Source: Pyrinomonadaceae bacterium (GTDB lineage: Bacteria; Acidobacteriota; Blastocatellia; Pyrinomonadales; Pyrinomonadaceae). Taken from it: DNA of 33,275 nt. The position numbers and the translations under genes are program-made. Shown in pieces: positions 292 through 26,530 of the stretch. The stretch is taken from contig DATBMP010000339.1 in NCBI GenBank assembly GCA_036554845.1, forward strand, positions 1-33,275. The letters are read 5' to 3'. The notes below the pieces were generated by a model, which was not told the DNA's origin, did not search any database, and saw nothing but the letters and a program-made list of their open reading frames with translations. Each line of letters starts with the position of its first letter. Position 1 is the first letter of the stretch.

Positions 292-424
292 CGGTTTTGT
301 TGCCCAATGCCGCTCGTCGATTTCGCATAGGGTGAATTTCCATCACCTGTCATACAGAGCGACCCGGGGGAATTTGAGTAATACCCTTGGAACTCAATCA
401 ACAATCGGAAATCGGAGTAACAGG

Positions 425-2869
425 ATGGACACGCTAATCAAAGACCTTCGCTTTGGAGTCAAGAGTTTGCTCAAGCGCCCGACTTTCACGGTCGTTGCGA
501 TCGTCACGTTGGCCCTCGGCATTGGCGCGAACACCGCGATCTTCAGTCTGGTAAACGCAGTGCTCATTCGGCCTCTGTCATTCCACCAACCCGATCGGTT
601 GGTACGAGTATTTGAAGACGCGTCAGCAATCAACATCCCTCGCGATGACGTCGCACCAGGTAATTTCGCGGATTGGAGATCGCAACAGACTGTCTTTGAA
701 GATATGGCAGCAGCCGCTCCGAGAAGCTACAACCTGATCGGCGACGGCGAACCGGAACGTGTCCTGGCCCTCGCCGTGACCAACAGTTTCCTTCCCGTCC
801 TGGGTGTTCAGCCTCTCGTTGGCCGCAACTTCACAGCTGACGAAGACAAGCCAGGCGCAAACAGAGTAGTGATCCTTTGTTATGAATTGTGGCAGCGCAG
901 GTTTGGCGGAACGCTGGATATTGTCAACCGCGACATTCAACTGGACGACGAGATGTACCGCGTCGTCGGCGTAATGCCAGAACGATTTCAATTTGCCTCG
1001 AGCACAGTCGGGTTGTGGGTGCCGGCGGCCTTAACTGACCAACAACTTGCAGACCATGACAATCACTTCTTAATGGTGGTAGCGCGACTTAAATCTGGCA
1101 TTGCCGTGGCCCAGGCAGACGCTGAACTCCAAACAATCTCGCAAAGAATCGCGCGTGATCATCCTGAGGAAGCGCTGGGACTGAAATCCATCGTCGAACC
1201 TGTTCGTGAACAGATGGTTGCGTCGGTGCGCCGTCCTTTGTTGATGCTCGTGGTTGCCTCTGGTCTGGTTCTGCTGATTGCCTGCGCAAATATGGCGAGT
1301 CTGCAATTGTCGCGCGCTACCAGTCGGGGCAAGGAGATAGCTTTGCGAACCGCGCTCGGTGCGAGTCGCATTCGTATCGTTCGCCAGTTACTCACGGAAA
1401 GTATCTTGCTCGCGTTCATCGGTGGTGTCCTTGGATTGCTGGTTGCTGTGTGGAGCTTCGCGTTATTGAAACAGCTGGTACCAGCAGCGATGAAGATCTC
1501 GACGATGTTAGAGCTAGATTTCACCATGGTCGCTTACGCCGGCGCGGTCTCGCTCTTAACAGGAATTCTTTTTGGATTAGCTCCGGCACTTCAGGCTTCA
1601 AAGATCGACCTGAACGACGCCCTTAAGCAGGGAGGGATACGCACCGGACAGGGCGCGAAGGGTAACAAGCTTCGAGGCTCGCTGATTGTTGGTGAGGTCG
1701 CACTCGCACTCGTTCTTTTGATCGGCGCGGGACTGATGATTCAAACCATCTCTCATCTGCTGGGCCAATACTCACACTTTGAACCAGAAAGATTGTTGAC
1801 CCTTCGAACCATTATGTCTGACCGCAGTTACCGAGACCTTAAGGAATATCAAACAAAGGAACATCCCAAACGCCTGGCTTTCTACGATCAGGTGCTGGCG
1901 CACGTGAGGTCGCTACCGGGGGTGGTTTCAGCCGCGTACACGACGTCGGTACCTTTGGCCTGGAAAGGCGGATCAAACGGGGTAACGATTGAGACGCGCC
2001 AACAGGAAGAGGGCCGGGCGCCAAATGCGATCCATCGACAAATCAGCCCCGGATATTTTCAAACAATGAAGATCGCACTGAAGGAGGGTCGCGATTTCAC
2101 TGATCAGGATAACGAGACGGTGATTCCGGTTGCTATCGTTAACCAGTCACTCGCTCGCGAGTGGAAAGGTGAGAGTCCAATTGGTAAGCGCTTGAAGCTG
2201 GGGACGCCAAATGCTCCGTGGGTAACGGTGGTTGGCGTGGTCGCTGATGTAAGGCAGATGGGGATGGACCAGCCGGTTAAGTCCGAGATGTACTTACCGT
2301 ACCGGCAGATCTCTTCGCACCCCTGGTTTAGCCCACGAGATCTAGTCATTCGCACAACTGGAGATCCGAACTCACTGGTGGCGGCAGTACGTCGTGAGAT
2401 ACAAGCCGCAGATCCGAATCAACCTGTTGCCGGTGTGGCAACAATTGAAGAATTGTTGATTCGCGATGCTGGTTCACGCCGTCTGGCAATGATTCTACTT
2501 TCAGTCTTTGCGGGCCTGGCCTTGTTGTTAGCTTCGCTCGGAATCTACGGAGTGCTCTCTTTTGTCGTCACGCAACAGACAAGGGATATCGGAGTGAGAT
2601 TAGCGTTGGGAGCCCAAGTCGGTGACGTATTGGCACTGGTGTTGAAGACAGGGATGCGTTGGGTGCTGCTCGGTGTGGCGCTGGGATTGGTCGCGGCCTT
2701 TGCGCTATCACGGCTGGTGTCTAATTTGTTGTTTGGAGTAAGCGCTAAGGATCCGCTGACGTTCTTGTCTGTTGTATTGATTCTTATCACCGTTGCGTTG
2801 CTCGCATGTCTGATTCCGGCGCGACGCGCGACGAGAGTCGATCCACTTGTGGCGTTGCGGTACGAATAA
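425..2869 (+). CDS. ADOP family duplicated FtsX-domain ABC transporter permease
   Basis: The ORF is open from 332, but the family N-terminus MDTLIKDLRFGVKSLLKRPTFTVVAIVTLALGIGANTAIFS begins at ATG 425. Length is about 815 aa with two FtsX-like hydrophobic blocks. The C-terminus is [15 protein letters not shown]. Confidence 0.88.
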   Translation: MDTLIKDLRFGVKSLLKRPTFTVVAIVTLALGIGANTAIFSLVNAVLIRPLSFHQPDRLVRVFEDASAINIPRDDVAPGNFADWRSQQTVFEDMAAAAPRSYNLIGDGEPERVLALAVTNSFLPVLGVQPLVGRNFTADEDKPGANRVVILCYELWQRRFGGTLDIVNRDIQLDDEMYRVVGVMPERFQFASSTVGLWVPAALTDQQLADHDNHFLMVVARLKSGIAVAQADAELQTISQRIARDHPEEALGLKSIVEPVREQMVASVRRPLLMLVVASGLVLLIACANMASLQLSRATSRGKEIALRTALGASRIRIVRQLLTESILLAFIGGVLGLLVAVWSFALLKQLVPAAMKISTMLELDFTMVAYAGAVSLLTGILFGLAPALQASKIDLNDALKQGGIRTGQGAKGNKLRGSLIVGEVALALVLLIGAGLMIQTISHLLGQYSHFEPERLLTLRTIMSDRSYRDLKEYQTKEHPKRLAFYDQVLAHVRSLPGVVSAAYTTSVPLAWKGGSNGVTIETRQQEEGRAPNAIHRQISPGYFQTMKIALKEGRDFTDQDNETVIPVAIVNQSLAREWKGESPIGKRLKLGTPNAPWVTVVGVVADVRQMGMDQPVKSEMYLPYRQISSHPWFSPRDLVIRTTGDPNSLVAAVRREIQAADPNQPVAGVATIEELLIRDAGSRRLAMILLSVFAGLALLLASLGIYGVLSFVVTQQTRDIGVRLALGAQVGDVLALVLKTGMRWVLLGVALGLVAAFALSRLVSNLLFGVSAKDPLTFLSVVLILITVALLACLIPARRATRVDPLVALRYE

Positions 2870-2888
2870 GTTATCCAAAAAGGAGGTC

Positions 2889-3338
2889 ATGATGAAACTA
2901 ACTACTTTTGGAGCACTGCTGCTGACTGTAATTGTTTCGCATTCTACGATCTATGCACAGGATCAGGCCGATCGCGAGGGCGTGCGCATGGCAGTACTCG
3001 ATTACGTTGAGGGCATCTATAACGTTGAGCCGTCACGAATCGAGCGGAGCGTCTCTTCCAAACTTGCCAAGAGCGGTTTCTACCGTGGTCCCAACGACCA
3101 GACTTACCGGGATTCATCCGTAATGACCTTTGAACAACTCGTAAAGCTCGCCGGGAGTTGGAACAAGGATGGCAAACTCCGAAAGGACGCGCCGAAAGAG
3201 ATCACAATCTTCGACGTCCTGGATAAAACCGCGACGGCGAAACTGGTTGCTGAATGGGGCATCGATTACCTGCATCTGGCAAAGCTTGATGGCAAATGGA
3301 TGATCGTCAATGTCATCTGGCAGAGTCCGATGAAGTGA
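2889..3338 (+). CDS. NTF2-fold, putative lumazine-binding-like secreted protein
   Basis: AGGAGG (2881-2886) precedes ATG 2889. A signal-peptide-like N-terminus is present (MMKLTTFGALLLTVIVSHSTIYAQ). The pattern ...AVLDYVEGIY...LAKLDGKWMIVNVIW resembles the NTF2/SnoaL-like lumazine-binding family. The 2847 start in the ORF track overlaps the upstream gene and has no RBS. Confidence 0.6.
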   Translation: MMKLTTFGALLLTVIVSHSTIYAQDQADREGVRMAVLDYVEGIYNVEPSRIERSVSSKLAKSGFYRGPNDQTYRDSSVMTFEQLVKLAGSWNKDGKLRKDAPKEITIFDVLDKTATAKLVAEWGIDYLHLAKLDGKWMIVNVIWQSPMK

Positions 3339-3359
3339 TCGGGCATTAAGGTAGGAAAT

Positions 3360-5771
3360 ATGGACGCACTCAAACAGGACCTTCGTTTTGGTATCCGGGC
3401 TTTGTTGTCGCGACCGGCATTCACTGTGGTCGCGCTGTTGACCCTTCTAGTTGGTATTGGCGCCAACACCGCGATGTTCACCGTGGTTAATGCTGTCCTG
3501 TTGCGACCGCTCTCGTTTCCTGAGTCTGACCAGATCGTTGTTTTTGCCGGCACCAATCCGGCAAAGGGAATCACGCAAAGCAACATGTCTTTACCAGACT
3601 TCGCTGACTGGAAGCATCAATCGCAATCATTTGAACAGCTCGCGGGCTTCGTCGCCGGCGGGTCGATACTCGCTCACGGAGATGAATCAGAACGTGTCCG
3701 AGGCACCGGCGTCACCGTTGACTTTTTCCCGTTGTTTCGAACGAGTCCATTGAAAGGTCGATTGCTTCAGCCAGACGATGCCGAACCTGGACGCGAATCA
3801 GTAGTGTTGCTGAGTCATGCTCTCTGGCAACGACGTTTTGGCGCCGATCCAAATATCGTGGGAACAAAAGTGATGCTTACCACGAAACCCACAACTATTG
3901 TTGGGGTCATGCCGCAGGGTTTTGATTACCCGGCGCAGACGGAAGTGTGGGTGCCTTATGTATTTGATGCGGCGAATGAAAGACGCGACAACCGCTTTAT
4001 CAGCGTCATCGGAAGATTGAAAAATGGTGTTTCGATTCAACAGGCCCAGATCGAAATCAACACCATCAATCAACGATTGGCCCAAAGTTATAGCGATACA
4101 AACGCGGGATGGAGCGCCCAGCTTACCGATCTTCGGGAAAGTTTGGTCGGCGGATTGCGAATTGCGCTGCTGGTTCTGTTAGGCGCAGTGGCCTTTGTCT
4201 TATTAATTGCCTGCGCGAATGTTGCAAATCTGCAGTTGGCACGTGCGACTTATCGTCAGAAAGAGATGGCGGTACGTTCAGCCTTGGGAGCCAGCCGGTT
4301 TCGCATGATCCGCCAGTTGTTGACTGAGAGTGCGTTACTGTCGGCGCTGGGTGGTGTGCTCGGACTGGCGTTAAGTGTATGGCTAACACAACTTCTCATT
4401 TCGTGGAGTCCTCCGAACAGCCCACGTTTCGATGAGATCGGGATCGATATCCAGGTCTTTCTCTTCACCTTCGCGGTAACGATTCTCACCGGTTTGGTTT
4501 TCGGACTTGTACCCGCTTTGCAAACGTCGCGTCCGGATGTGAACGATGTCTTGCGAGGCAGTGGGCGTCAAGGATCATCGGGCGGCAAACATAATCGCGT
4601 TGGCGGTATCTTGATGATCTCCGAGATCGCGCTGTCGGTCATTTTGCTGGCTGGTGCCGGTCTGTTGATTCAAAGTTTCGCTCGTCTGCGCGAAGTCAAT
4701 CCAGGTTTCAAAGCTAACAACGTGTTAACGATGCGACTGTCGATTCCACCCGGCAAGATTCCTCCTGGCCCAGGACGCGCGCAGTTCTATCGCGAAGTCA
4801 CAGAACGCGTGAAGACACTCTCCGGCGTTCAATCGGCAAGCGCAGTTCTTAGCCTTCCACTCGGTGGCGACACATTCAATGTTGGTCGCTCATTCATTCG
4901 TGAAGGACGTCCTGCAACCCCTGAAGAATCCGCCAATGCCACCTACCTGGTTGTCACGCCTGATTACTGGCAGACCCTGCAGATCCCTTTGAAGTCGGGT
5001 CGCATCTTTACCGAAAACGACACCGACCAAACAACCAAAGTCGTGATTATTAACGAGACGATGGCGCGGCAACACTGGGGCGGTGAAAACCCGATTGGAA
5101 GAAGAATAACCATCTGGCGCGATGAAGATTTTCCGCGCGAGGTAGTTGGTGTCGTGGGCGACACCAAGTCATCACTTGACACGGATCCGGGCGCTCAGAT
5201 GTACGTGCCGTATGCACAGGATCCCGGTTGGGGAAGTTTGACGCTTGCTGTGCGTACTGCCGGTGAACCTACTGCTCTGGTTGGTTCTGTTCGCGAACAG
5301 ATTAGAAGCATCGACAAACTGGTTCCGACCTACAGTGTGAAGACCATGAACGATGTGGTCCAGAACTCTGCCGCGCCCAGACGTACCCCGATGCTTCTGT
5401 TGACCGTGTTTGCGGGTGTGGCACTTCTGTTGGCGATGCTTGGTATTTATGGCGTCACGGCTTATTACGTCAGACAACGCACACAGGAGATTGGAATCCG
5501 CATCGCACTTGGGGCGCAGCGCGCAGATGTTCTCAAACTGGTGTTGAAGCGCGGCATGTTTCTCTCTCTGATCGGAGTGATTGTTGGCGTCGCGGGCGCG
5601 TTTGCACTGACACGTTATCTGACAACGCTGCTGTTTGGAGTTCCACCGGTGGATCCGCTGACATTCGCAGGAGTTTCGTTGTTGCTGGTCCTGGTCGCGC
5701 TTTTAGCATGTTACGTGCCGGCACGACGTGCCTTGAAAGTCGATCCATTGGTGGCGCTGCGGTACGAATGA
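3360..5771 (+). CDS. ADOP family duplicated FtsX-domain ABC transporter permease
   Basis: N-terminus MDALKQDLRFGIRALLSRPAFTVVALLTLLVGIGANTAMF, 803 aa, C-terminus [15 protein letters not shown]. Confidence 0.88.
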   Translation: MDALKQDLRFGIRALLSRPAFTVVALLTLLVGIGANTAMFTVVNAVLLRPLSFPESDQIVVFAGTNPAKGITQSNMSLPDFADWKHQSQSFEQLAGFVAGGSILAHGDESERVRGTGVTVDFFPLFRTSPLKGRLLQPDDAEPGRESVVLLSHALWQRRFGADPNIVGTKVMLTTKPTTIVGVMPQGFDYPAQTEVWVPYVFDAANERRDNRFISVIGRLKNGVSIQQAQIEINTINQRLAQSYSDTNAGWSAQLTDLRESLVGGLRIALLVLLGAVAFVLLIACANVANLQLARATYRQKEMAVRSALGASRFRMIRQLLTESALLSALGGVLGLALSVWLTQLLISWSPPNSPRFDEIGIDIQVFLFTFAVTILTGLVFGLVPALQTSRPDVNDVLRGSGRQGSSGGKHNRVGGILMISEIALSVILLAGAGLLIQSFARLREVNPGFKANNVLTMRLSIPPGKIPPGPGRAQFYREVTERVKTLSGVQSASAVLSLPLGGDTFNVGRSFIREGRPATPEESANATYLVVTPDYWQTLQIPLKSGRIFTENDTDQTTKVVIINETMARQHWGGENPIGRRITIWRDEDFPREVVGVVGDTKSSLDTDPGAQMYVPYAQDPGWGSLTLAVRTAGEPTALVGSVREQIRSIDKLVPTYSVKTMNDVVQNSAAPRRTPMLLLTVFAGVALLLAMLGIYGVTAYYVRQRTQEIGIRIALGAQRADVLKLVLKRGMFLSLIGVIVGVAGAFALTRYLTTLLFGVPPVDPLTFAGVSLLLVLVALLACYVPARRALKVDPLVALRYE

Positions 5772-5775
5772 GCTC

Positions 5776-5872
5776 ATTGCCGATGATTGATTGCAATTGG
5801 CGACTGGAGGACGCAACTGCTTTACTGACTACTGACTACTGACTTCTGACTACTTAACTACTTACTACTAAC
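5776..5872. repeat. Heptanucleotide tandem-repeat tract with two juxtaposed unit families: ATTGCCG-like, then ACTGACT-like
   Basis: The first family reads ATTGCCG ATGATTG ATTGCAA TTGGCGA (5776-5803). The second has seven units in 5824-5872, the first three being perfect ACTGACT (5824-5844). The tract lies between the ADOP stop (5771) and the RBS AAAGGAG of the next ADOP gene. Confidence 0.8.
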
Positions 5873-5889
5873 CCTCAAAGGAGTTACAC

Positions 5890-8340
5890 ATGCGCGGACT
5901 AAGTCGAGACATCCGGTACGCCATTCGAAACTTGATTAAACGACCGGCCTTCACCGCGATTGCTTTGGCTACACTCGCTCTCGGCATCGGCGCGAACACC
6001 GCAATCTTTAGCCTGGTCAATACCGTCCTCTTGCGACCACTTCCAGTTGCCGATCCAGAGAAAGTTGTCTCAGTCGCAGTTCGGGGAAAGGGCGACGCGA
6101 TCGGTGCGTTCTCGTATCCAAACTATCAGGACTTTCGCGATCGCAATCAGGTGTTGTCAAGCTTTCTCATCTACCGGTTCGTGCCAATGAGCTTGAGTGG
6201 TGCCGGCGGAAACGAACGGATCTGGGGCTACGAAGTATCAGGAAACTATTTTGATGTGCTCGGCGTGAAGGCAGTCAAAGGACGCACCTTCCTTCCTGAT
6301 GAAGATCGCACGCGGCTAACGCATCCTGTGATCGTGATCAGTCACGCTTCCTGGCAAAGGCGTTATGCTGCCGATCCGGATATCGTCGGGAAGGAAGTCC
6401 TCATTAATAATCATCCCTTCCAGATCATCGGCGTTGCTCCGCCCGAATTTCAGGGCACGGAATTCGTTTACATGCCCGAACTTTGGGTGCCGGTTTCGAT
6501 GATGGGTTGGATTGAACCGGGTTCTGGTTGGCTCGACAGTCGCAAGAGTGCGAACTTCTTCGGTATTGGACGTTTGAAAGATGGAGTGTCACTGGCCCAG
6601 GCAGAGTCGTCGTTGAATATTCTCGCGAGTGACCTTGCACGCGAATTCCCCGACAGCAATGAAGGACTGACCATTGTTCTGACCCCTCCCGGATTCATCA
6701 TTCCTGATTTGCGAGGGTCAGTTGTCAGCTTCACCTGGATTCTGATGGCCGCCGTTGCGCTCGTCCTTTTGATTACCTGCACCAACCTCGCTGGCCTGCT
6801 GCTGGCTCGAGCTACCGATCGACGCAAAGAGATTGCGATTCGACTTTCATTGGGCGCCGACCGGCGGCGGCTGGTCCGACAATTACTGACTGAGAACGTT
6901 TTGCTATCAGTCGTCGGTGGAGCACTCGGCTTCTGGTTGGCGCTTTGGATTATTAGACTCCTGTTGGCATTCAAGCCTCCGATCGATTTTCCGCTGACTG
7001 TGGACCTAAGCGTGGATTGGCGAGTTTTAGTGTTCACCCTCGCCATCTCGCTCATCACCGGCGCGTTGTTTGGTCTCGCGCCCGCGCTTCAGGCGACACG
7101 AGCAAGCATTACCTCGGCATTGAAAGATACTGCTGACCAGGGCGGCCATTCGCGTTCACGACTGCGCGGTACATTGGTGGTGGCCCAACTGGCAGTTTCA
7201 CTGATGATTCTGATATCGGCGGGATTGGTGGCCCGATCATTTGCAAAACTGCAGTCGATGAATCCCGGATTCGACCCTCGCAACGCGCTGACACTGTCGT
7301 TCGATCTCGGACTGCAGGGTTACGACGACGCCAGGGGCATGGATTTTCAGCGTCAAACTGTGGATCGAGTTCAGTCATTACCTGGCGTGAAGTCTGTTGC
7401 CATTGCTTCGAACATTCCCCTTTCCTTGAACTACAACAGCACCAACGTCTACGTTGAGGGTCACGCTCCTGAGCGAGGTGCGAACCTGCCTCAGGCGATG
7501 ACGGCTTCAGTGAGTCCAAAGTACTTCGCTACGATGGGCACCAGGATAGTCGAGGGTCGCGAGTTTACGGACCACGATAAGAAGGATTCAGAAAGTGTTG
7601 TTATCGTGAACGAGACTTTCGTGCGCCGAATCATTCCCGAAGCCAAATCGCCAGCCGACGCGCTCAATCGTCGAATCAGTTTCAGTGGTATACAAGGACC
7701 GTACTCGCTGATTGTTGGGGTCGCTAAAGATGGCAAGTACTTCAACATTGCCGAAGAGCCTCGTTCTTTTATCTGGTCGTCGATGGCCCAGGACAATACC
7801 AATGGTGGCAGCCTGGTAATCCGAACTGAAGGTCCCCCTGAAGCAACAATCTCAGCGGCAAGAAACGTAGTTCTCTCGGTGGATCCTAACTTACCGCTCT
7901 TTGATGTAAAGACCTTGGACGAGCATATGCAGTTCGCGCTCTTCCCATCTCGAGTGGCAGCATTTGTGTTGGGTGCGTTCGGTATCGTGGCGCTGGCACT
8001 CGCAGCGATAGGAATCTATGGCGTCACCGCGTATTCGGTTTCGCAGCGCACGCGCGAAATCGGAATTCGCATCGCCCTGGGCGCGCAGTTGGGTGACGTA
8101 TTGAGAATGATCCTGCGGACTGCGGTAATACTTACAACGATTGGAGTTGTGTTGGGACTGCTGGGAGCGTTTCTCTTGACGCGCGCGCTAAGCAGTTTAT
8201 TGAGTGGCGTCAGCGCAACGGACCCGGTGACCTTCATCATTGTGTCTCTTGTAATGATCCTGGTTGCCCTGCTCGCTTCCTACTTTCCTGCCAGACGCGC
8301 AACGAAAGTCGATCCGTTAATCGCGCTGCGGTATGAGTGA
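5890..8340 (+). CDS. ADOP family duplicated FtsX-domain ABC transporter permease
   Basis: RBS AAAGGAG lies upstream of ATG 5890. N-terminus MRGLSRDIRYAIRNLIKRPAFTAIALATLALGIGANTAIFS, 816 aa, C-terminus [15 protein letters not shown]. Confidence 0.88.
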   Translation: MRGLSRDIRYAIRNLIKRPAFTAIALATLALGIGANTAIFSLVNTVLLRPLPVADPEKVVSVAVRGKGDAIGAFSYPNYQDFRDRNQVLSSFLIYRFVPMSLSGAGGNERIWGYEVSGNYFDVLGVKAVKGRTFLPDEDRTRLTHPVIVISHASWQRRYAADPDIVGKEVLINNHPFQIIGVAPPEFQGTEFVYMPELWVPVSMMGWIEPGSGWLDSRKSANFFGIGRLKDGVSLAQAESSLNILASDLAREFPDSNEGLTIVLTPPGFIIPDLRGSVVSFTWILMAAVALVLLITCTNLAGLLLARATDRRKEIAIRLSLGADRRRLVRQLLTENVLLSVVGGALGFWLALWIIRLLLAFKPPIDFPLTVDLSVDWRVLVFTLAISLITGALFGLAPALQATRASITSALKDTADQGGHSRSRLRGTLVVAQLAVSLMILISAGLVARSFAKLQSMNPGFDPRNALTLSFDLGLQGYDDARGMDFQRQTVDRVQSLPGVKSVAIASNIPLSLNYNSTNVYVEGHAPERGANLPQAMTASVSPKYFATMGTRIVEGREFTDHDKKDSESVVIVNETFVRRIIPEAKSPADALNRRISFSGIQGPYSLIVGVAKDGKYFNIAEEPRSFIWSSMAQDNTNGGSLVIRTEGPPEATISAARNVVLSVDPNLPLFDVKTLDEHMQFALFPSRVAAFVLGAFGIVALALAAIGIYGVTAYSVSQRTREIGIRIALGAQLGDVLRMILRTAVILTTIGVVLGLLGAFLLTRALSSLLSGVSATDPVTFIIVSLVMILVALLASYFPARRATKVDPLIALRYE

Positions 8341-8344
8341 AGGA

Positions 8345-8584
8345 AATTTCGGAATGCGGGTTTCGGATTTCGGATTTGGAGTTGGGATTTGTAAGTTGTT
8401 GGTGGTTCGAAGACTTACTTAGGGTTTCTCGTGATGTGATTTAATTGGGTCGTATTTGTCCTCCTATTAAATGCCGGCTACGAGGCAACACCGAACTAAC
8501 CCAAATTCCAAATTCCAAATAATTCCACAATCCAAATTCCAAATTCCAAATTCCAAATTCCAAATTCCAAATTCGAAATCCAAC
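8345..8584. repeat. Inverted pair of heptamer tandem arrays, (CGGATTT)-like left arm and (ATTCCAA/GAAATCC)-like right arm, around a 107-bp spacer
   Basis: The left arm has 7 units in 8345-8393 (AATTTCG GAATGCG GGTTTCG GATTTCG GATTTGG AGTTGGG ATTTGTA). The right arm has 12 units in 8501-8584, including five consecutive perfect ATTCCAA units (8536-8570). The arms are approximate reverse complements. The right arm ends 10 nt before the ATG at 8595. Confidence 0.85.
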
Positions 8585-17494: not shown

Positions 17495-18528
17495 TTCGGA
17501 GTCACTCCTTCGGTCATCTCGCCAGTCTGAGTTTTCAACAAGGCTTTCACCAGTCCCACATAGTGGTCCACTGCTTCTGATAACGCTTGTTTCGACACAC
17601 GCTCGTGTGGGGTGTGCGCGTCCAAAATCGAACCTGGTCCCAGCAATAAAGGCGTGCCCCAGTTTGTCAGGTGCGGAATGTCGGTTGTGAATCTCACTAC
17701 ACACTTTTCAAAGCCGTCGAGGGCCAGCATTCGCACCGGCTCGCTTACCGACAAGTACTCGATTTGCGCGCGCGGTTGAACGATTGATTCGAGCAGTTGT
17801 TTCACCGGGCCCGACTGAGTTGTTAGACGAATCTGTAAATCAGCTTCAGCCGAAGCCGGTATGACATTGGCCCTCACTCCGCCACGCAGAATTCCGATGT
17901 TGCAGGTCGTCTCACCAAAGAACTCATCGGTCGGCCAGTTGACCTGACGAATGTCGTTCAACACATCCAGCAACTTATCAATCGCTGAATCGCCGTGTTC
18001 GGGATAAGCCGAATGCGCGGCCCGGCCATCTGCTTTAACTCGCAATCGGAGAGAACCTTTTGATCCGATAGCGAGTTTGTTATCAGTCGGCTCGCCATTA
18101 ATCAGAAACTCACAGGATTCGCCCACCGGATGTTCGTTGGCGAGACGAGCACCATCGCTGCCGGCCTCTTCATCAACTGTGAAAAGTAGACCGATCTGGT
18201 CCACGCCCTGACGACGAAGCTCTTCTGCCGCAACGATCTGCGCCGCGATGATTCCTTTGGCGTCGCAAGAGCCGCGTCCGTAAATGAAGTCATCGTCTTC
18301 GCTGGAATCAATGTGTGGAGGAACAGTATCCATGTGAGTTGAGAAGACCACTCGCGCCGCACTCCCGGTAGTTGCGATCAGGTTTGCGCGACCTGCTGTG
18401 AGTTCCTGGACCTCTACCTTGTAGCCCAGACGTTGCAGTTCAGAGTTTAGAAAGCGAGCAATTTCAAGTTCGGTACCTGTTAACGAAGGTATGTCGATCA
18501 AGTTCCTGGTCAGATCAAACAGATTCAT
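17491..18528 (-). CDS. M20 family metallohydrolase (ArgE/DapE); by context a probable succinyl-diaminopimelate desuccinylase
   Basis: M20 motifs are present: FSTHMDTVPP, GRGSCDAKG, FTVDEEAGSDG and HSAYPEHG. It is translationally coupled on both sides (ATGA overlaps with lysC and dapB). Confidence 0.75.
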   Translation of the reverse strand: MNLFDLTRNLIDIPSLTGTELEIARFLNSELQRLGYKVEVQELTAGRANLIATTGSAARVVFSTHMDTVPPHIDSSEDDDFIYGRGSCDAKGIIAAQIVAAEELRRQGVDQIGLLFTVDEEAGSDGARLANEHPVGESCEFLINGEPTDNKLAIGSKGSLRLRVKADGRAAHSAYPEHGDSAIDKLLDVLNDIRQVNWPTDEFFGETTCNIGILRGGVRANVIPASAEADLQIRLTTQSGPVKQLLESIVQPRAQIEYLSVSEPVRMLALDGFEKCVVRFTTDIPHLTNWGTPLLLGPGSILDAHTPHERVSKQALSEAVDHYVGLVKALLKTQTGEMTEGVTPK

Positions 18529-19910
18529 GCGGGCACCTTCTCGGCGAACTGCACCGTTTCACTCAACAAGAATGCATCATGCAGCCGCGTGATGACTTCT
18601 CGGACCTTCTCCTCTTCAACCACGAACGTGAGATTGATTCGCGACGCACCTTGCGAGATCAGCGAAACATTGATGTCGCTTAAGCAGCCGAATACTCGCG
18701 CGGCGACACCCGGTGTACCACGCAGTCCTTCGCCAACGACACAGATGATCGCGCGTTGACGTTCGATGTGGACCTCGCCCAGTCGTCGTAATTCATTCGC
18801 GATATCGGGAAGAGCGGTCGCATCATCAAGCGAGATTGAGACAGAAACCTCAGAAGTTGTGACGACGTCGATTTCGGTGCGATACCGGTTGAAGATTTCG
18901 AAGATGGCATGGAGAAAACCGTGCGCACCAAGCATTCGCGCCGAAGTGATTTGGATCAGTGTGATGCCAGTCTTGTGTGCAATGGCTTTGACAGAATGGG
19001 GTGAGACTTCAGTTTGCCGGCAGACGATCGTCCCCTCCGTCTCGGGCGATCGCGCATTGCAGATATGAACTGGAATGTTCTGTTCAACTGCCGGTTGAAT
19101 GGTCTTGGGATGAAGGACCTTGGCGCCAAAGAATGCAAGCTCTGCCGCCTCGCCATACGAAAGTCTCGGGATCGTTCGTGCCTCGGGAAGAACGCGAGGA
19201 TCTGCGGTCAAAACACCGGGGACGTCGGTCCATATTTCGAGTTCGTTCGCGTTGAGGGCGGCGGCGACAATTGCTGCGGTGTAATCCGAGCCACCGCGAC
19301 CAAGCGTTGTTGTGGTGCCGTCGACGGATGCCGCAATGAAGCCGCCGCAAACTGGCACAACATTTTCCCTCAACAAAGGCGTCAGTATTGAACGGGTCTT
19401 CTCGTTCGTCAGGTCTACGATTGGTTCAGCTCGACCGTGATCTCGATTAGTGATGATCAAACGTCGGGAATCAACGTATTGGGTGCGTGGACCAGCTTCA
19501 TCGATAACAGAGGCCAGAAGATCGGCGGAGAGTCGTTCGCCGAAAGAGACGATTTCGTCTTGTAGAGCAGGTCTTGAATTCTGCTGTTCGTTAACCTTGT
19601 TAAGCAGCGTAGCTATTTCTGTCCTGGCGGCAGCGACGGTATCTGAGATTGGTAGCGGGTCGGCCATTAATGCCTCTGCCACATCCAGGTGTCGTTGAAG
19701 ATGTTCGACCAGTGAATCGAGAGCGGTCACAGGATCGCCTTTCGCTGCCAGATCGACGCTGTTGAGGAGCGCATCGGTTACGCGACTCATAGCCGAGACG
19801 ACGATTACTGGTGTCGATGACGCGTGCGATTTGACGATGTCTACGACGCGGCGAAATGCATCCGCATCTTCAACGCAGGTGCCGCCAAACTTCATGATGG
19901 TAGTAGCCAT
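18525..19910 (-). CDS. lysC: Aspartate kinase (lysine-branch copy, riboswitch-controlled)
   Basis: The N-terminus MKFGGTCV, the segment GRGGSDYTAAIVAAAL...IWTDVPGVLTADPR...EAAELAFFGAKVLHP, and C-terminal ACT-like repeats all match aspartate kinase. It is the first gene after the L-box leader. Confidence 0.9.
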   Translation of the reverse strand: MATTIMKFGGTCVEDADAFRRVVDIVKSHASSTPVIVVSAMSRVTDALLNSVDLAAKGDPVTALDSLVEHLQRHLDVAEALMADPLPISDTVAAARTEIATLLNKVNEQQNSRPALQDEIVSFGERLSADLLASVIDEAGPRTQYVDSRRLIITNRDHGRAEPIVDLTNEKTRSILTPLLRENVVPVCGGFIAASVDGTTTTLGRGGSDYTAAIVAAALNANELEIWTDVPGVLTADPRVLPEARTIPRLSYGEAAELAFFGAKVLHPKTIQPAVEQNIPVHICNARSPETEGTIVCRQTEVSPHSVKAIAHKTGITLIQITSARMLGAHGFLHAIFEIFNRYRTEIDVVTTSEVSVSISLDDATALPDIANELRRLGEVHIERQRAIICVVGEGLRGTPGVAARVFGCLSDINVSLISQGASRINLTFVVEEEKVREVITRLHDAFLLSETVQFAEKVPA

Positions 19911-19962: not shown

Positions 19963-20037
19963 TCTTGGCAATTGCATCAAGCGCGCGCAGTTTGGGCACT
20001 CGAAATGATCACGTCGTAGCTCTCCACCGGTCAAAAA

Positions 20038-20192
20038 GATCTCGGTGACAGTCCTGCGGATTTAGCCACAGCAACCAACTCATCAGGAGAAGGTGTTCCT
20101 GGTTGAGCTTCGGCGACCTGCCCCTTTCATCTGGACCATTTGCACCTTCGTTTCGGGTGTCAGATTACTCTTGGAGGTCGCGCCTCTACCTT
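20038..20192 (-). promoter_or_regulatory. Lysine riboswitch (L-box) aptamer
   Basis: The minus strand reads GGTAGAGGCGCGACCTCCAAGAGTAATC...GATGAAAGGGGCAGGTCGCCGAAGC...GGACTGTCACCGAGATC. The blocks AGAGGCGC, CAAGAGTA, GAAAGGGG, GTCGCCGAAG and CTGTCA match the conserved L-box core as seen in the B. subtilis lysC leader. It is located upstream of lysC. Confidence 0.85.
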
Positions 20193-20223
20193 GATAGAAA
20201 GATCAGCTTGAAAAAGTTACTAA

Positions 20224-23031: not shown

Positions 23032-24363
23032 TTGACGTCCACTCCGCAGCAACTCTGTATCGAACCCGCTTGTGGCGCGACATTTCCGCTCAATGATCGT
23101 CTCTACGTCTGTCCACGCTGTGGAGGCCTGTTGGATGTCCAACCAGCATCTCCATCAACTCTTGATCCGGATGAACTGAAGAGTCGATGGACCATGAGGC
23201 TCTCTTCTTTCGACGCGCGCGATCGCAGCGGTGTCTGGCGCTATCGTGAGTTGCTGCCTTTCCATGGCGACGCAAGAATAGTTTCGCTCCTCGAAGGCAA
23301 TACTCCGCTGTACGACGCAACGCGGTCCGCGAATTACTGTGAGATGCAAACGCTGACGTTGAAACACCAGGGTCTCAATCCAACCGGTTCCTTCAAAGAC
23401 ACAGGCATGACCACGGCCATCACGCAGGCAGTGCAACTGGGTGCCACCACCGTTGTTTGCGCGAGTACGGGAAACACTGCGGCGAGTCTGGCCGCCTATG
23501 CCGCGCGTGCCGGGTTGCCGTGCGCGATTCTTGTCCCTCGTGGGCAGGTGAGCCATGCAAAGTTGGCCCAGAGTCTGGATTATGGTGCTGAGGTGATCGA
23601 GATCGACGGGAACTTCGACGACTCGATGCGAGTAATTCGTGAACTCGCCGAAGATGAATCGATTTACCTCGTGAACTCGATCAATCCGTTTCGTATCGAA
23701 GGTCAGAAGACTGTCGCCGTAGAAATGCTTCACCAACGTGATTGGCGCGTGCCCGATCACGTCGTGGTGCCCGGCGGAAATCTGGGAAACAGTTCAGCGC
23801 TGGGGAAGGGCTTTCGAGAGTTACTCGAGCTTGGCGTGATCGATCGATTGCCACGGTTATCCGTAGTTCAGGCTGAAGGTGCTGCCCCGTTTGCTCAATT
23901 ATTTGCAATCGAGAAAGAAGATCATTTCACTGGCGCCGCGGAATTGGTTCCTGTAGAAAATCCCGAGACGCTGGCCACGGCAATCAAGATTGGCGACCCG
24001 GTATCCTGGAAGAAGGCATTGCGTGAAGTTCGAACCAGTGGCGGTAGGGTGATCACGGTTAATGAGCAGGAGATTGCTGACGCCAAAGCTGTGATTGGAA
24101 GAGATGGGGTTGGTTGTGAACCTGCGTCAGCAACAACAGTCGCCGGTATCAGGCAATTAGTTGCGAGTAAATTTATTGGACGTGACGATGATGTGGTCGC
24201 AGTTTTGACCGGACATGTGTTGAAGGATACGAACTACGTAATCAAATATCACGAGGGCGAATTGATCGTCGGTGAAGAACATCAGTTGTTGACAGGAGCC
24301 TTTCGCAATCCACCCGCTCGAGTTAAAGCAACGAAGGAAGCGATCCTCGAATACCTCAGATGA
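23032..24363 (+). CDS. thrC: Threonine synthase with N-terminal Cys4 zinc-ribbon-like segment
   Basis: The TTG start is preceded by GGGAAG. The N-terminal segment is CIEPACG...CPRCGG. The PLP-lysine region is NPTGSFKDTGM. GNTAAS and the overall 443-aa length are consistent with ThrC. Confidence 0.88.
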   Translation: MTSTPQQLCIEPACGATFPLNDRLYVCPRCGGLLDVQPASPSTLDPDELKSRWTMRLSSFDARDRSGVWRYRELLPFHGDARIVSLLEGNTPLYDATRSANYCEMQTLTLKHQGLNPTGSFKDTGMTTAITQAVQLGATTVVCASTGNTAASLAAYAARAGLPCAILVPRGQVSHAKLAQSLDYGAEVIEIDGNFDDSMRVIRELAEDESIYLVNSINPFRIEGQKTVAVEMLHQRDWRVPDHVVVPGGNLGNSSALGKGFRELLELGVIDRLPRLSVVQAEGAAPFAQLFAIEKEDHFTGAAELVPVENPETLATAIKIGDPVSWKKALREVRTSGGRVITVNEQEIADAKAVIGRDGVGCEPASATTVAGIRQLVASKFIGRDDDVVAVLTGHVLKDTNYVIKYHEGELIVGEEHQLLTGAFRNPPARVKATKEAILEYLR

Positions 24364-24605
24364 TTGACGATCTTCAATTTACGGGTGTGCGATTGAGGGT
24401 GTGCGATTGACGATCTTCGATTGACGAGTGACGATTTGTTTGTTGGTTGTGGACCGTTTGCCCGCCAGGGTGCGTGAGTGTATTCGATGAGAAAATCGCC
24501 GATCAACGAATCGAGAATCGTCAATCGAGAACCTTCAATCGACAATCGTCAGTCGTCAATCGAGCAAACGTCAATCGACACTCTTCAATCGCAAATTGCC
24601 AATTC
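24362..24605. repeat. Inverted heptamer arrays: (CGATTGA)-type left arm and (TCAATCG)-type right arm around a G/T-rich spacer
   Basis: CGATTGA occurs at 24390, 24404 and 24418 (14-nt spacing), with TGATTGA at 24361 containing the thrC stop. TCAATCG occurs at 24521, 24535, 24556, 24571 and 24585. The 11-mers CGATTGACGAT (left) and ATCGTCAATCG (right, 24516-24526) are exact complements. The right arm lies inside the thrB ORF. Confidence 0.8.
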
Positions 24606-25509: not shown

Positions 25510-25528
25510 GACGGTGGATTGCCGGGCT

Positions 25529-25718
25529 GGAATTTCGGATTTGGGATTTCGGATTGCGGATTTCGTGTCTGGTAAGGGACGCTGATTGGTTTAGCGTTCC
25601 TTACCAAACACGAAATCCGCAATCCGCAATCCGCAATCCGAAATCCGCCCCCCGCAATCCGCAATCCCAAATTCGAAATCCGAAATTCCAAATTCCAAAT
25701 TCCAATTTCCAAATTTCT
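25529..25718. repeat. Inverted heptamer arrays (GGATTTC/GGATTGC left; GAAATCC/GCAATCC/AAATTCC right) enclosing a 13-bp central hairpin
   Basis: Left-arm bases 25550-25568 pair perfectly (19 bp) with 25608-25626. The central stem GGTAAGGGACGCT (25571-25583) pairs with AGCGTTCCTTACC (25593-25605). The right arm continues with about 13 more heptamer units, ending 8 nt before the ATG at 25727. Unit sequences are the same family as at 8345-8584. Confidence 0.85.
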
Positions 25719-25726
25719 TCATTCTT

Positions 25727-26530
25727 ATGAATCTTAAAAAACTCAACTGGCAAATCTGGGCCGGGTTTCTGCTCGCGTTGTTGGGATCGCTTAGTTACAT
25801 TTTTCTCTTCGTTAACTACCCCATCACACGCGACTTTCCATGGGCCAACCTGTTGCTCTTTGCGATCGCGCTGGTTTTTCTGGTCGTCGGTCTTCGCCGT
25901 GCCTTCGCTTCTGATCGGCCGCGCCCGCTCCTGTCCAGGATTGGCGGATCCGTACTGGCAACGTTAAGCCTCGCCATCATGGGGCTCTTTATCTTTAGCA
26001 TCCTTGTGATGGCCAGATGGTTGCCATCGTCCAGTGGCGCTCCACATGTCGGTCAGAAAGCCCCTGACTTTTCACTTCAGGATAGCAACGGCAACCAGGT
26101 AACACTTTCTTCACTTCTCGCCACACCAATCAATGGCAAAGCTCCCAAGGGCGTCCTGTTGATCTTCTATCGAGGTTACTGGTGACCGGCATGCCACTCC
26201 GAGTTACGGGGTGTGCAACAAAAGTTAGCTCAATTTCACGAAGCGGGTATTCATCCAGTAGCGATCAGTGTAGATCCGCCGGAAACGAATCGCGGGATGC
26301 TGGCGCAAGCAGGGTATACGTTCCTGTTTCTTTCTGATCCGAAAGCGGAAGCGATTCGAAGTTACGATCTGGTCCATGCCGGGCAAGGCGAGAATGGAGG
26401 CGATATTTCTCGGCCAGCAGAGTTCATTGTGGACACGAGCGGCACGGTGCGTTGGGTAAATTTGACTGAGAACTATTGGGTTCGAGCACGCCCTGAGCAG
26501 ATCCTTGAAGTGACAAACACGCTTCGTTGA
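25727..26530 (+). CDS. Membrane-anchored peroxiredoxin-like (AhpC/TSA, PRX_like2-type) protein with in-frame TGA at 26183-26185: candidate selenoprotein (UxxC); alternative is a nonsense pseudogene
   Basis: ORFs 25727..26185 and 26213..26530 are in the same frame, separated only by one TGA. The read-through product is ...GQKAPDFSLQD...VLLIFYRGYW-U-PACHSELRGVQQKL...ISVDPPE...FLSDP...PAEFIVDTSGTVRW. This places the TGA exactly at the first Cys of the W-C-P-x-C redox motif. Three N-terminal TM helices are present. Confidence 0.6.
26189..26216 (+). promoter_or_regulatory. Candidate bacterial SECIS-like hairpin immediately downstream of the in-frame UGA
   Basis: GCA (26189-91) pairs with UGC (26214-16), with a 3-nt bulge. 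The 7-bp stem is CACUCCG (26195-26201) with CGGGGUG (26207-26213). The apical loop AGUUA contains GU. The loop starts 16 nt after the UGA. Confidence 0.4.

Follow-up and report, generated by a model that had tools for sequence, protein, structure and literature searches.

Does the single in-frame TGA that divides a peroxiredoxin-like gene of a soil acidobacterium end that gene, or is it read as selenocysteine (Sec)? The question is raised by positions 25727 to 26530 of contig DATBMP010000339.1 from a Pyrinomonadaceae bacterium, the entire 33,275-nucleotide stretch of which is referred to below as the window. Gene calling divides the locus into two open reading frames (ORFs), 25727..26185 (152 aa) and 26213..26530 (105 aa), which share one reading frame without a frameshift, and before its terminal TGA at 26528-26530 the frame opened by the ATG at 25727 meets one stop only, the TGA at 26183-26185 (protein context ...LLIFYRGYW-*-PACHSELRG...). 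This arrangement had been noticed in a first-pass annotation made from the DNA letters, which proposed that the TGA encodes Sec, and translation of the window bears it out. In our judgement it is very likely that the locus is one real selenoprotein gene of 267 residues whose in-frame TGA encodes Sec. The proposal is backed by the conservation of the TGA among relatives, the occurrence of cysteine in homologs at the same position, coding conservation on both sides of the codon, a hairpin resembling a selenocysteine insertion sequence (SECIS) that is under RNA-level selection, and a peroxiredoxin (Prx) fold.

A protein search with the window protein yielded 4359 relatives, and DNA was retrieved for loci on 80 metagenome contigs and in 80 species-representative genomes, almost all of them metagenome-assembled genomes of Pyrinomonadaceae, Blastocatellia and other Acidobacteriota. 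The peptides used for retrieval, L[VI]FYRGYW and TR[DN]FPW, both lie upstream of the putative Sec codon, and the retrieval was therefore not biased toward TGA. At the aligned codon, whose state in orthologs the first-pass annotation had proposed to check, TGA was found in 160/160 of the fetched loci as well as in five further loci (L001-L005). The 160 loci come from independent assemblies of at least 80 species and encode proteins with 53-68% amino-acid identity to the window protein and 46-68% pairwise identity among themselves. The gene is also present on the complete chromosomes OY970256.1 (L091) and OY970193.1 (L113) and on the 1.07-Mb contig Ga0207710_10000003 (L061). All 166 copies contain exactly one internal stop, which is always TGA and never TAA or TAG, with the two parts in frame, and the C-terminal part after it is intact in every copy (113-123 aa). 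The closest relatives include three N-terminal fragments of 152-164 aa that end exactly at ...FYRGYW, namely the window's own, P0100 (79% identity) and P0119 (69% identity); the contig of P0100 has the same gene order as the window, and the DNA encoding P0119 (L001) carries the same in-frame TGA. The codon also recurs on four more contigs of the same species obtained from different samples.

Beyond the TGA, the pattern of substitution is that of coding sequence. Mean pairwise differences at codon positions 1, 2 and 3 are 0.246, 0.172 and 0.586 downstream of the TGA and 0.235, 0.125 and 0.517 just upstream, which shows that purifying selection at the protein level acts equally on both sides of the codon, in agreement with the earlier impression that the downstream part is undisturbed. 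A pseudogene or artefact would be a decaying gene in which the TGA arose by recent TGC/TGT-to-TGA nonsense mutation, a caveat of the first-pass annotation, or by sequencing error; this explanation has the bare presence of a stop codon in its favour and nothing more, and the universal TGA across diverged species, its recurrence on the same-species contigs and the purifying selection beyond the stop have already refuted it for practical purposes. Reassignment of TGA as a sense codon throughout the lineage (genetic code 4 or 25) would account for the tryptophan that occupies the position in six JGI proteins (P0001, P0002, P0005, P0007, P0008 and P0010). Two of these translations, P0001 and P0005, also continue past their true stop into non-homologous tails, from which it follows that the tryptophan is a mistranslation of TGA, a systematic annotation artefact on short contigs. 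As the true stops of 161 orthologs are TAG in 63, TGA in 53 (the window's gene included) and TAA in 45, TGA is still a terminator and has not been reassigned, and no other conserved in-frame TGA emerged when 1.55 Mb of related loci were scanned, so that this explanation, too, is virtually eliminated. A split gene would require termination at the TGA and a restart at the GTG at 26213; the products would be a membrane fragment of 152 aa and a second piece of 105 aa, which either assemble or act separately. The gene callers do yield exactly these two ORFs; nevertheless, such a break would cut a single compact domain at its active-site CxxC turn, the nine codons between TGA and GTG are highly conserved as protein and include the invariant Cys156, and the GTG is not conserved, with the downstream ORF calls of relatives starting elsewhere. 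Together with the single in-frame TGA, never replaced by TAA or TAG, these observations make a split gene very improbable.

The residue expected at a Sec position is found in the homologs that lack the TGA. Six close homologs (P0003, P0004, P0006, P0016, P0017 and P0120) have cysteine at the aligned position within a CxxC motif, which in P0003, P0004 and P0006 is of the type FYRGYW-C-PAC, and a large, more distant outgroup clade also has cysteine there within the motif ...YAG-C-RAC-NSE.... The placement of the TGA at the first redox cysteine of a CxxC motif, as originally proposed, thus holds for close and distant relatives. In a neighbour-joining tree without support values, the close Cys forms branch from within the Sec clade at three or more separate points, which suggests that Sec was replaced by Cys repeatedly.

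Immediately downstream of the TGA, the RNA is constrained beyond its coding capacity. The first-pass annotation had pointed out a hairpin with a GU-containing loop that begins 16 nt after the UGA and regarded its position as SECIS-compatible; the hairpin proved to be conserved and to agree with the published description of bacterial SECIS (bSECIS) elements. In the window its stem starts 11-12 nt after the UGA. Across orthologs the frozen bases form the pattern CUCCG-AGUUR-CGGRG, and RNAalifold returns exactly this 5-bp helix, which is paired in 150/150 sequences (750/750 cells); the conserved core thus comprises only 5 bp, and the longer stem of 7-10 bp in the window is lineage-specific. At one core pair, six sequences show a compensatory change from C-G to U-A (TTC with CGA), the 5' side of which costs a Ser-to-Phe substitution, and one sequence has a U-G intermediate at the same pair. 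When the partner strand is shifted by 1-3 columns, pairing falls from 79% (for the 7-bp version) to 38-56%.

The constraint is most evident in synonymous codon choice, which was compared with gene-wide usage for codons +4 to +8 after the TGA in 162 distinct genes. Codon +4 (Asn/His) is xAC in 158/162, whereas gene-wide AAC makes up 62% of Asn and CAC 57% of His codons. Codon +5 is TCC in 155/155 of the genes with Ser (gene-wide 15%), codon +6, a Glu codon that contributes the unpaired loop G, is GAG in 162/162 (47%), and codon +7, which contributes the loop U, is TTR in 154/154 of those with Leu (23%). Arg codon +8 is CGG in 156 and CGA in 6 genes, compared with 18% and 15% gene-wide. Five equally conserved codons shortly before the TGA, for Phe, Tyr, Arg, Gly and Tyr, serve as an internal control with the same sequences and phylogeny, and they use all synonyms; third-position divergence is 0.18 in the hairpin codons versus 0.52-0.61 elsewhere. 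Neither the G nor the first U of the loop is paired, yet both are invariant at synonymous sites, and the selection therefore points to contact with a protein, such as recognition of the G-U by SelB, and not to stem stability alone.

Bacterial SECIS elements have been described as having an apical loop of 3-9 nt and an upper stem of 4-16 bp (PMC13188914 Fig. 2), a G in the first two loop positions that is usually followed by G or U, a spacing of 16-37 nt from the UGA to the apical loop, and a minimum free energy (MFE) of at most -7.5 kcal/mol (PMC13188914). In the family studied here the loop has 5 nt, and the stem measures 5 bp in 73 sequences, 6 bp in 72 and 7 bp in 6, the window having 7 bp plus a further 3 bp. 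The loop reads A-G-U-U-R in 151/151 distinct sequences, with G at the second position followed by U; every sequence of an ungapped alignment has a spacing of 16 nt; and the MFE is -14.9 kcal/mol in the window, with an ortholog median of -10.4 and 95% of the values at or below -7.5. In at least 90% of the sequences the UGA is followed by C, and UGA-C is a weak (leaky) termination context. An alternative hairpin, GCAACU/AGUUGC with the loop CCG, occurs in some minimum-energy folds; this fold depends on TTG and AAC, cannot form in the window or in the His and TTA variants, and leaves the frozen CGG and the TTC-CGA covariation unexplained. A gathering-threshold scan and a permissive scan of 26100-26330 against Rfam matched no family to the hairpin region; Rfam is not known to hold a general bacterial SECIS model.

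The same RNA sites were compared in seven distinct genes of Cys forms, four close (L166, which is identical to L167, L168, L169 and L170) and three from the outgroup (L171-L173). Among the close forms, L166/L167 (P0004) has the Leu codon CTT and thus the loop AGCUU, L170 (P0017) has CTG for Leu, and L169 (P0006) has TCT; L168 (P0003) is the only one in which the hairpin is intact. In the outgroup, L171 has AAT and the loop AGUAU, L172 has CGC, which places a C-C mismatch in the helix, and L173 has CTG CAC GAC, by which the helix is lost. Six of the seven Cys-form genes thus depart from the 162 Sec forms at sites where the latter never vary, which ties the RNA constraint to the TGA, and the close Cys forms look like relaxing fossil SECIS elements.

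Several observations weigh against decoding of the TGA as Sec. The fold energy of the window hairpin is unexceptional (z = -0.23 for a 76-nt stretch of this single sequence), and the core lies outside the unconstrained minimum-energy fold in 66/151 orthologs; the significance of the hairpin comes from comparison across sequences and not from thermodynamics. The covariation amounts to essentially one evolutionary event, the 16-nt spacing is the lower bound of the bSECIS model, and the core is small at 5 bp. ARAGORN found no tRNA-Sec in the window or in the related loci, which comprise flanks of at most 21 kb each and not whole genomes, and tblastn with approximate E. coli SelA and SelD queries gave no match in the 1.55 Mb of flanking loci; overall, none of selA, selB, selC and selD was found in the window or in these flanks, which as partial genomes are uninformative on this point. 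Two scans of the related loci, one for a TGA conserved between diverged read-through ORFs and one for the pattern TGA-N11-stem-loop, revealed no second selenoprotein gene: the other matches were true stops (at the C-terminus of a response regulator) and antisense frames of the Sec gene itself, and four isolated pattern matches look like chance. A literature search retrieved no paper linking selenocysteine to Pyrinomonadaceae, Blastocatellia or Chloracidobacterium, while Sec use by some Acidobacteria is on record (PMC1794560 Table 2; PMC12013277).

These points leave some room for read-through that is independent of SelB, in which the hairpin would stimulate near-cognate or suppressor decoding of the UGA as Trp, Cys, Gly or Arg and a full-length protein would be made without selenium. 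Such read-through would be in keeping with the Sec machinery not having been found in the partial genomes at hand, with the very small size of the hairpin and with the generally leaky UGA-C context. However, the codon coincides precisely with the redox Cys in a CxxC motif, which is the signature of Sec, and Trp, Gly or Arg at residue 153 would destroy the active site. In addition, the unpaired loop G and U are frozen, as expected for contacts with SelB and not for a mere roadblock, the geometry of the hairpin fits the bSECIS model, and lineages that give up the TGA put Cys in its place. On this evidence SelB-independent read-through is improbable, somewhat less so than a split gene, and Sec remains by far the better supported reading of the codon.

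If the TGA is translated as Cys for the purpose of comparison, the protein matches Pfam AhpC-TSA (PF00578; E-value 1e-26, 93.7 bits against a cut-off of 26, residues 108-243) and Redoxin (PF08534; 2.6e-18). Sequence matches in the PDB are AhpE, PrxQ/BCP and ResA. The structure was examined through the AlphaFold model of the Cys ortholog P0003, which is 62% identical to the window protein (pLDDT 91.5); it has helices at 8-26, 39-61 and 68-97 followed by a compact thioredoxin-like domain. A Foldseek search of the PDB with this model ranked Bcp4 at the top, together with PrxQ, BcpB and AhpE (E-values down to 2.6e-13; TM-scores on the target of 0.78-0.89, with 0.89 for Bcp4), which supports a Prx fold. 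By hydropathy the window protein itself has transmembrane (TM) helices at approximately residues 10-29, 40-56 and 75-96, so that hydropathy, the model and Pfam agree with the original description of three TM helices followed by an AhpC/TSA domain. The membrane domain has no Pfam family match, with DUF2721 remaining below threshold.

The distribution of charged residues gives an indication of topology. Over 150 orthologs the mean number of Lys plus Arg is 1.9 in the N-terminal tail, 1.4 in loop 1 and 5.45 in loop 2, and by the positive-inside rule an N-in, C-out orientation is predicted with moderate confidence, tempered by about 2.3 Lys plus Arg in the 15 residues after the third helix. The Prx-fold domain would then most likely face the periplasm, and the enzyme would probably be exposed on the outer face of the membrane that anchors it.

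The active site departs from that of classical peroxiredoxins. In an alignment with M. tuberculosis AhpE the motif PxxxTxxC is not retained, as Arg149 lies on its Pro and Sec153 on its Thr, while the Cys and the catalytic Arg are kept; the window protein is for this reason a Prx-like UxxC oxidoreductase and not a classical Prx. The "peroxiredoxin-like" UxxC label of the first-pass annotation accordingly stands with regard to fold and motif and needs refinement with regard to the residues, since Sec takes the Thr position and Cys156 the position of the peroxidatic Cys. No NCBIfam model reaches its cut-off: the best match is the SelL-related redox family NF040769 (score 43.8 against 120), and other scores are those of ResA PRK03147 (43.7 against 170), BCP PRK09437 (35.6 against 140) and PrxU NF040737 (27.9 against 270).

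Among known selenoproteins, the closest resemblance is to the Prx-like thiol:disulfide oxidoreductases with PF00578 and a UxxC or UxxU motif, which were predicted in Geobacter, Syntrophus, Desulfotalea and others (PMC1794560 Table 1, PMC13188914 Table 1). The window protein shares with them the AhpC/TSA domain, a UxxC in place of the TxxC of Prx, Sec as the first residue of the motif, the existence of Cys homologs and a bSECIS-like hairpin directly after the UGA. Unlike them, its family has a conserved N-terminal membrane domain of about 100 residues with three helices, and it occurs in aerobic soil Acidobacteriota (Pyrinomonadaceae/Blastocatellia) and not in anaerobic Deltaproteobacteria or Clostridia. 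By domain and motif the window protein fits this group, which is represented by WP_010940744.1. Two further entries, a "Redoxin family protein" (PF08534, UxxC) and a "Peroxiredoxin-like family protein" (cd02970 PRX_like2, UxxS), belong to the same superfamily and have Sec at the same position (PMC13188914 Table 1); the window protein also matches PF08534 and, going by the table, differs from the cd02970 entry in having UxxC. A word search of PMC13188914 found "membrane" only in other contexts and "periplasm" not at all, and no membrane anchor is mentioned there for these two entries.

The BCP/PrxQ and AhpE peroxiredoxins (M. tuberculosis AhpE 1XVW, S. solfataricus Bcp4 3HJP) share the fold and the positions of Cys156 and Arg229 with the window protein, yet they are soluble and have the PxxxTxxC motif, whereas the window protein is predicted to be membrane-anchored and has not kept it. 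ResA, TlpA and CcmG resemble it in their W-C-x-x-C type of motif, thioredoxin-like fold and outward-facing, membrane-tethered arrangement, with weak sequence matches; they have one anchor helix where the window protein has three, and structurally the latter is nearer to Prx than to TlpA. The hairpin, for its part, lies within the coding sequence just after the UGA and exposes an unpaired G-U in a small apical loop, like the SECIS of E. coli fdhF, while its stem is much shorter, its conserved core lacks the bulged U and its loop is AGUUR. The minimal fdhF-type element has a stem that starts about 11 nt after the UGA, as does the hairpin of the window.

From these features we infer that Sec is actually inserted, and a plausible course of events can be outlined. 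When the ribosome reaches the UGA, SelB carrying Sec-tRNA(Sec) would bind the mini-SECIS and Sec153 would be inserted, and the weak UGA-C termination context may aid the recoding. The active site U153-P-A-C156 is predicted to lie where the first helix of the thioredoxin-like fold begins, with the Prx catalytic Arg229 kept. By analogy with the chemistry of the family, the Sec selenolate would be the likely attacking nucleophile on a substrate that may be a peroxide or a disulfide, and the resulting selenenic acid or mixed intermediate would be resolved by Cys156 to a selenylsulfide, which a reductant serving as electron donor would then recycle.

The Sec gene has escaped annotation: every public record examined gives it either as two "hypothetical/partial peroxiredoxin" ORFs or with the TGA as Trp. 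Gene callers routinely split selenoproteins of this known kind and no NCBIfam model would rescue the annotation, so a family-specific model would correct hundreds of annotations in soil genomes. If Sec is indeed inserted, Pyrinomonadaceae, which are abundant aerobic soil Acidobacteriota, would maintain a selenocysteine system, something that no paper we found has reported. The hairpin is also a clean natural case of RNA-level selection superimposed on a coding sequence, and it would define a very small SECIS. No concept of the field is changed, Prx-like UxxC selenoproteins having been familiar since about 2004; the window gene is a new member of that group and arguably represents a new membrane-anchored subfamily.

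In many related genomes the Sec gene has recurring neighbours. An extracytoplasmic function (ECF) sigma factor (regions 2 and 4 plus DUF6596) is found nearby in 30 loci, YCII in 39, DoxX_2 in 28 and 17, a glyoxalase-like gene in 30, DUF1428 in 16 and DinB in 13. Within 4 kb (L006-L085, L086-L165) these form a recurring cluster of a divergent ECF sigma factor with the DUF6596 extension, YCII, DoxX_2 (often in two copies), a glyoxalase/3-dmu-9_3-mt-like gene, DUF1428, the Prx-like gene and another YCII. The same cluster surrounds a Cys form (L166/L167), and it is absent from the window itself. Such a neighbourhood appears compatible with a role in the stress response. A more far-reaching interpretation, which we offer as tentative and rather doubtful in its entirety, is that the gene belongs to an uncatalogued, lineage-wide selenoprotein subfamily, a three-helix, membrane-anchored, periplasmic UxxC Prx-like enzyme present in essentially all sampled Pyrinomonadaceae/Blastocatellia, with a 15-nt SECIS core near the smallest working bacterial SECIS, and that it forms part of a selenium-dependent defence of the envelope against redox stress, pointed to by the ECF sigma/YCII/DoxX/glyoxalase-like/DUF1428 cluster and overlooked by current annotation. 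In the window the neighbours are thrC, thrB, a gene for a 163-aa secreted protein and an FAD monooxygenase gene; their adjacency is not conserved in 80 genomes, so the local context gives no functional clue. The features of the locus are collected in the table below.

Features of the Sec gene and of one further RNA element in the window (window coordinates)
Feature	Position	Strand	Details
Predicted selenoprotein coding sequence	25727..26530	+	ATG 25727, Sec-TGA 26183-26185, true stop TGA 26528-26530; 267 aa including Sec153
N-terminal membrane domain (predicted), residues 1-96	25727..26014	+	three TM helices; conserved motifs NWxxWxGF and PxTRDFPW
AhpC/TSA (peroxiredoxin-fold) domain, residues 108-243	26048..26455	+	spans the TGA; Pfam PF00578, PF08534
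Putative Sec codon UGA, residue 153	26183..26185	+	first position of the UxxC redox motif; next base C
Cys156 (TGC)	26192..26194	+	second UxxC residue; invariant in all alignments; on the peroxidatic Cys in the AhpE alignment
Candidate SECIS hairpin	26195..26213	+	5' arm CACUCCG 26195-26201, loop AGUUA 26202-26206, 3' arm CGGGGUG 26207-26213
Conserved core of the hairpin	26197-26201 paired with 26207-26211	+	universal; 5 bp
Extension of the hairpin in the window	26192-26194 paired with 26215-26217	+	3 bp; U26214 bulged
Arg229 (CGG)	26411..26413	+	invariant family column; on the catalytic Arg of peroxiredoxins in the AhpE alignment
Lysine riboswitch	20009-20196	-	Rfam RF00168, 85 bits; upstream of the aspartokinase gene 18525-19910 (-)

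Other parts of the window contain features of separate interest. Tandem heptanucleotide repeat arrays fill many intergenic spacers (5823-5869, 8346-8390, 8501-8583, 24362-24427, 24509-24591, 25528-25565 and 25611-25715), with units that include TACTGAC, ATTTCGG, CCAAATT, AATCGTC, AATCCGC and AATTCCA, repeated up to about 11 times; the selenoprotein start codon directly follows one array. We take these arrays to resemble the short tandemly repeated repetitive (STRR) sequences of cyanobacteria. The listed start of the GHMP-kinase (thrB-like) ORF, at 24478-24600 (+), falls inside one such array and its first 40 or so codons translate repeats; the real start of this gene is probably further downstream. 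The aspartokinase gene that lies downstream of the lysine riboswitch is followed by a dap/lysine-biosynthesis cluster consisting of an M20 peptidase, DapB, DHDPS, a THDP succinyltransferase-like gene and an aminotransferase. At 332-8340 (+), three consecutive large MacB_PCD/FtsX permease genes, encoding 845, 803 and 816 aa, precede genes for a sigma-54 response regulator and a histidine kinase.

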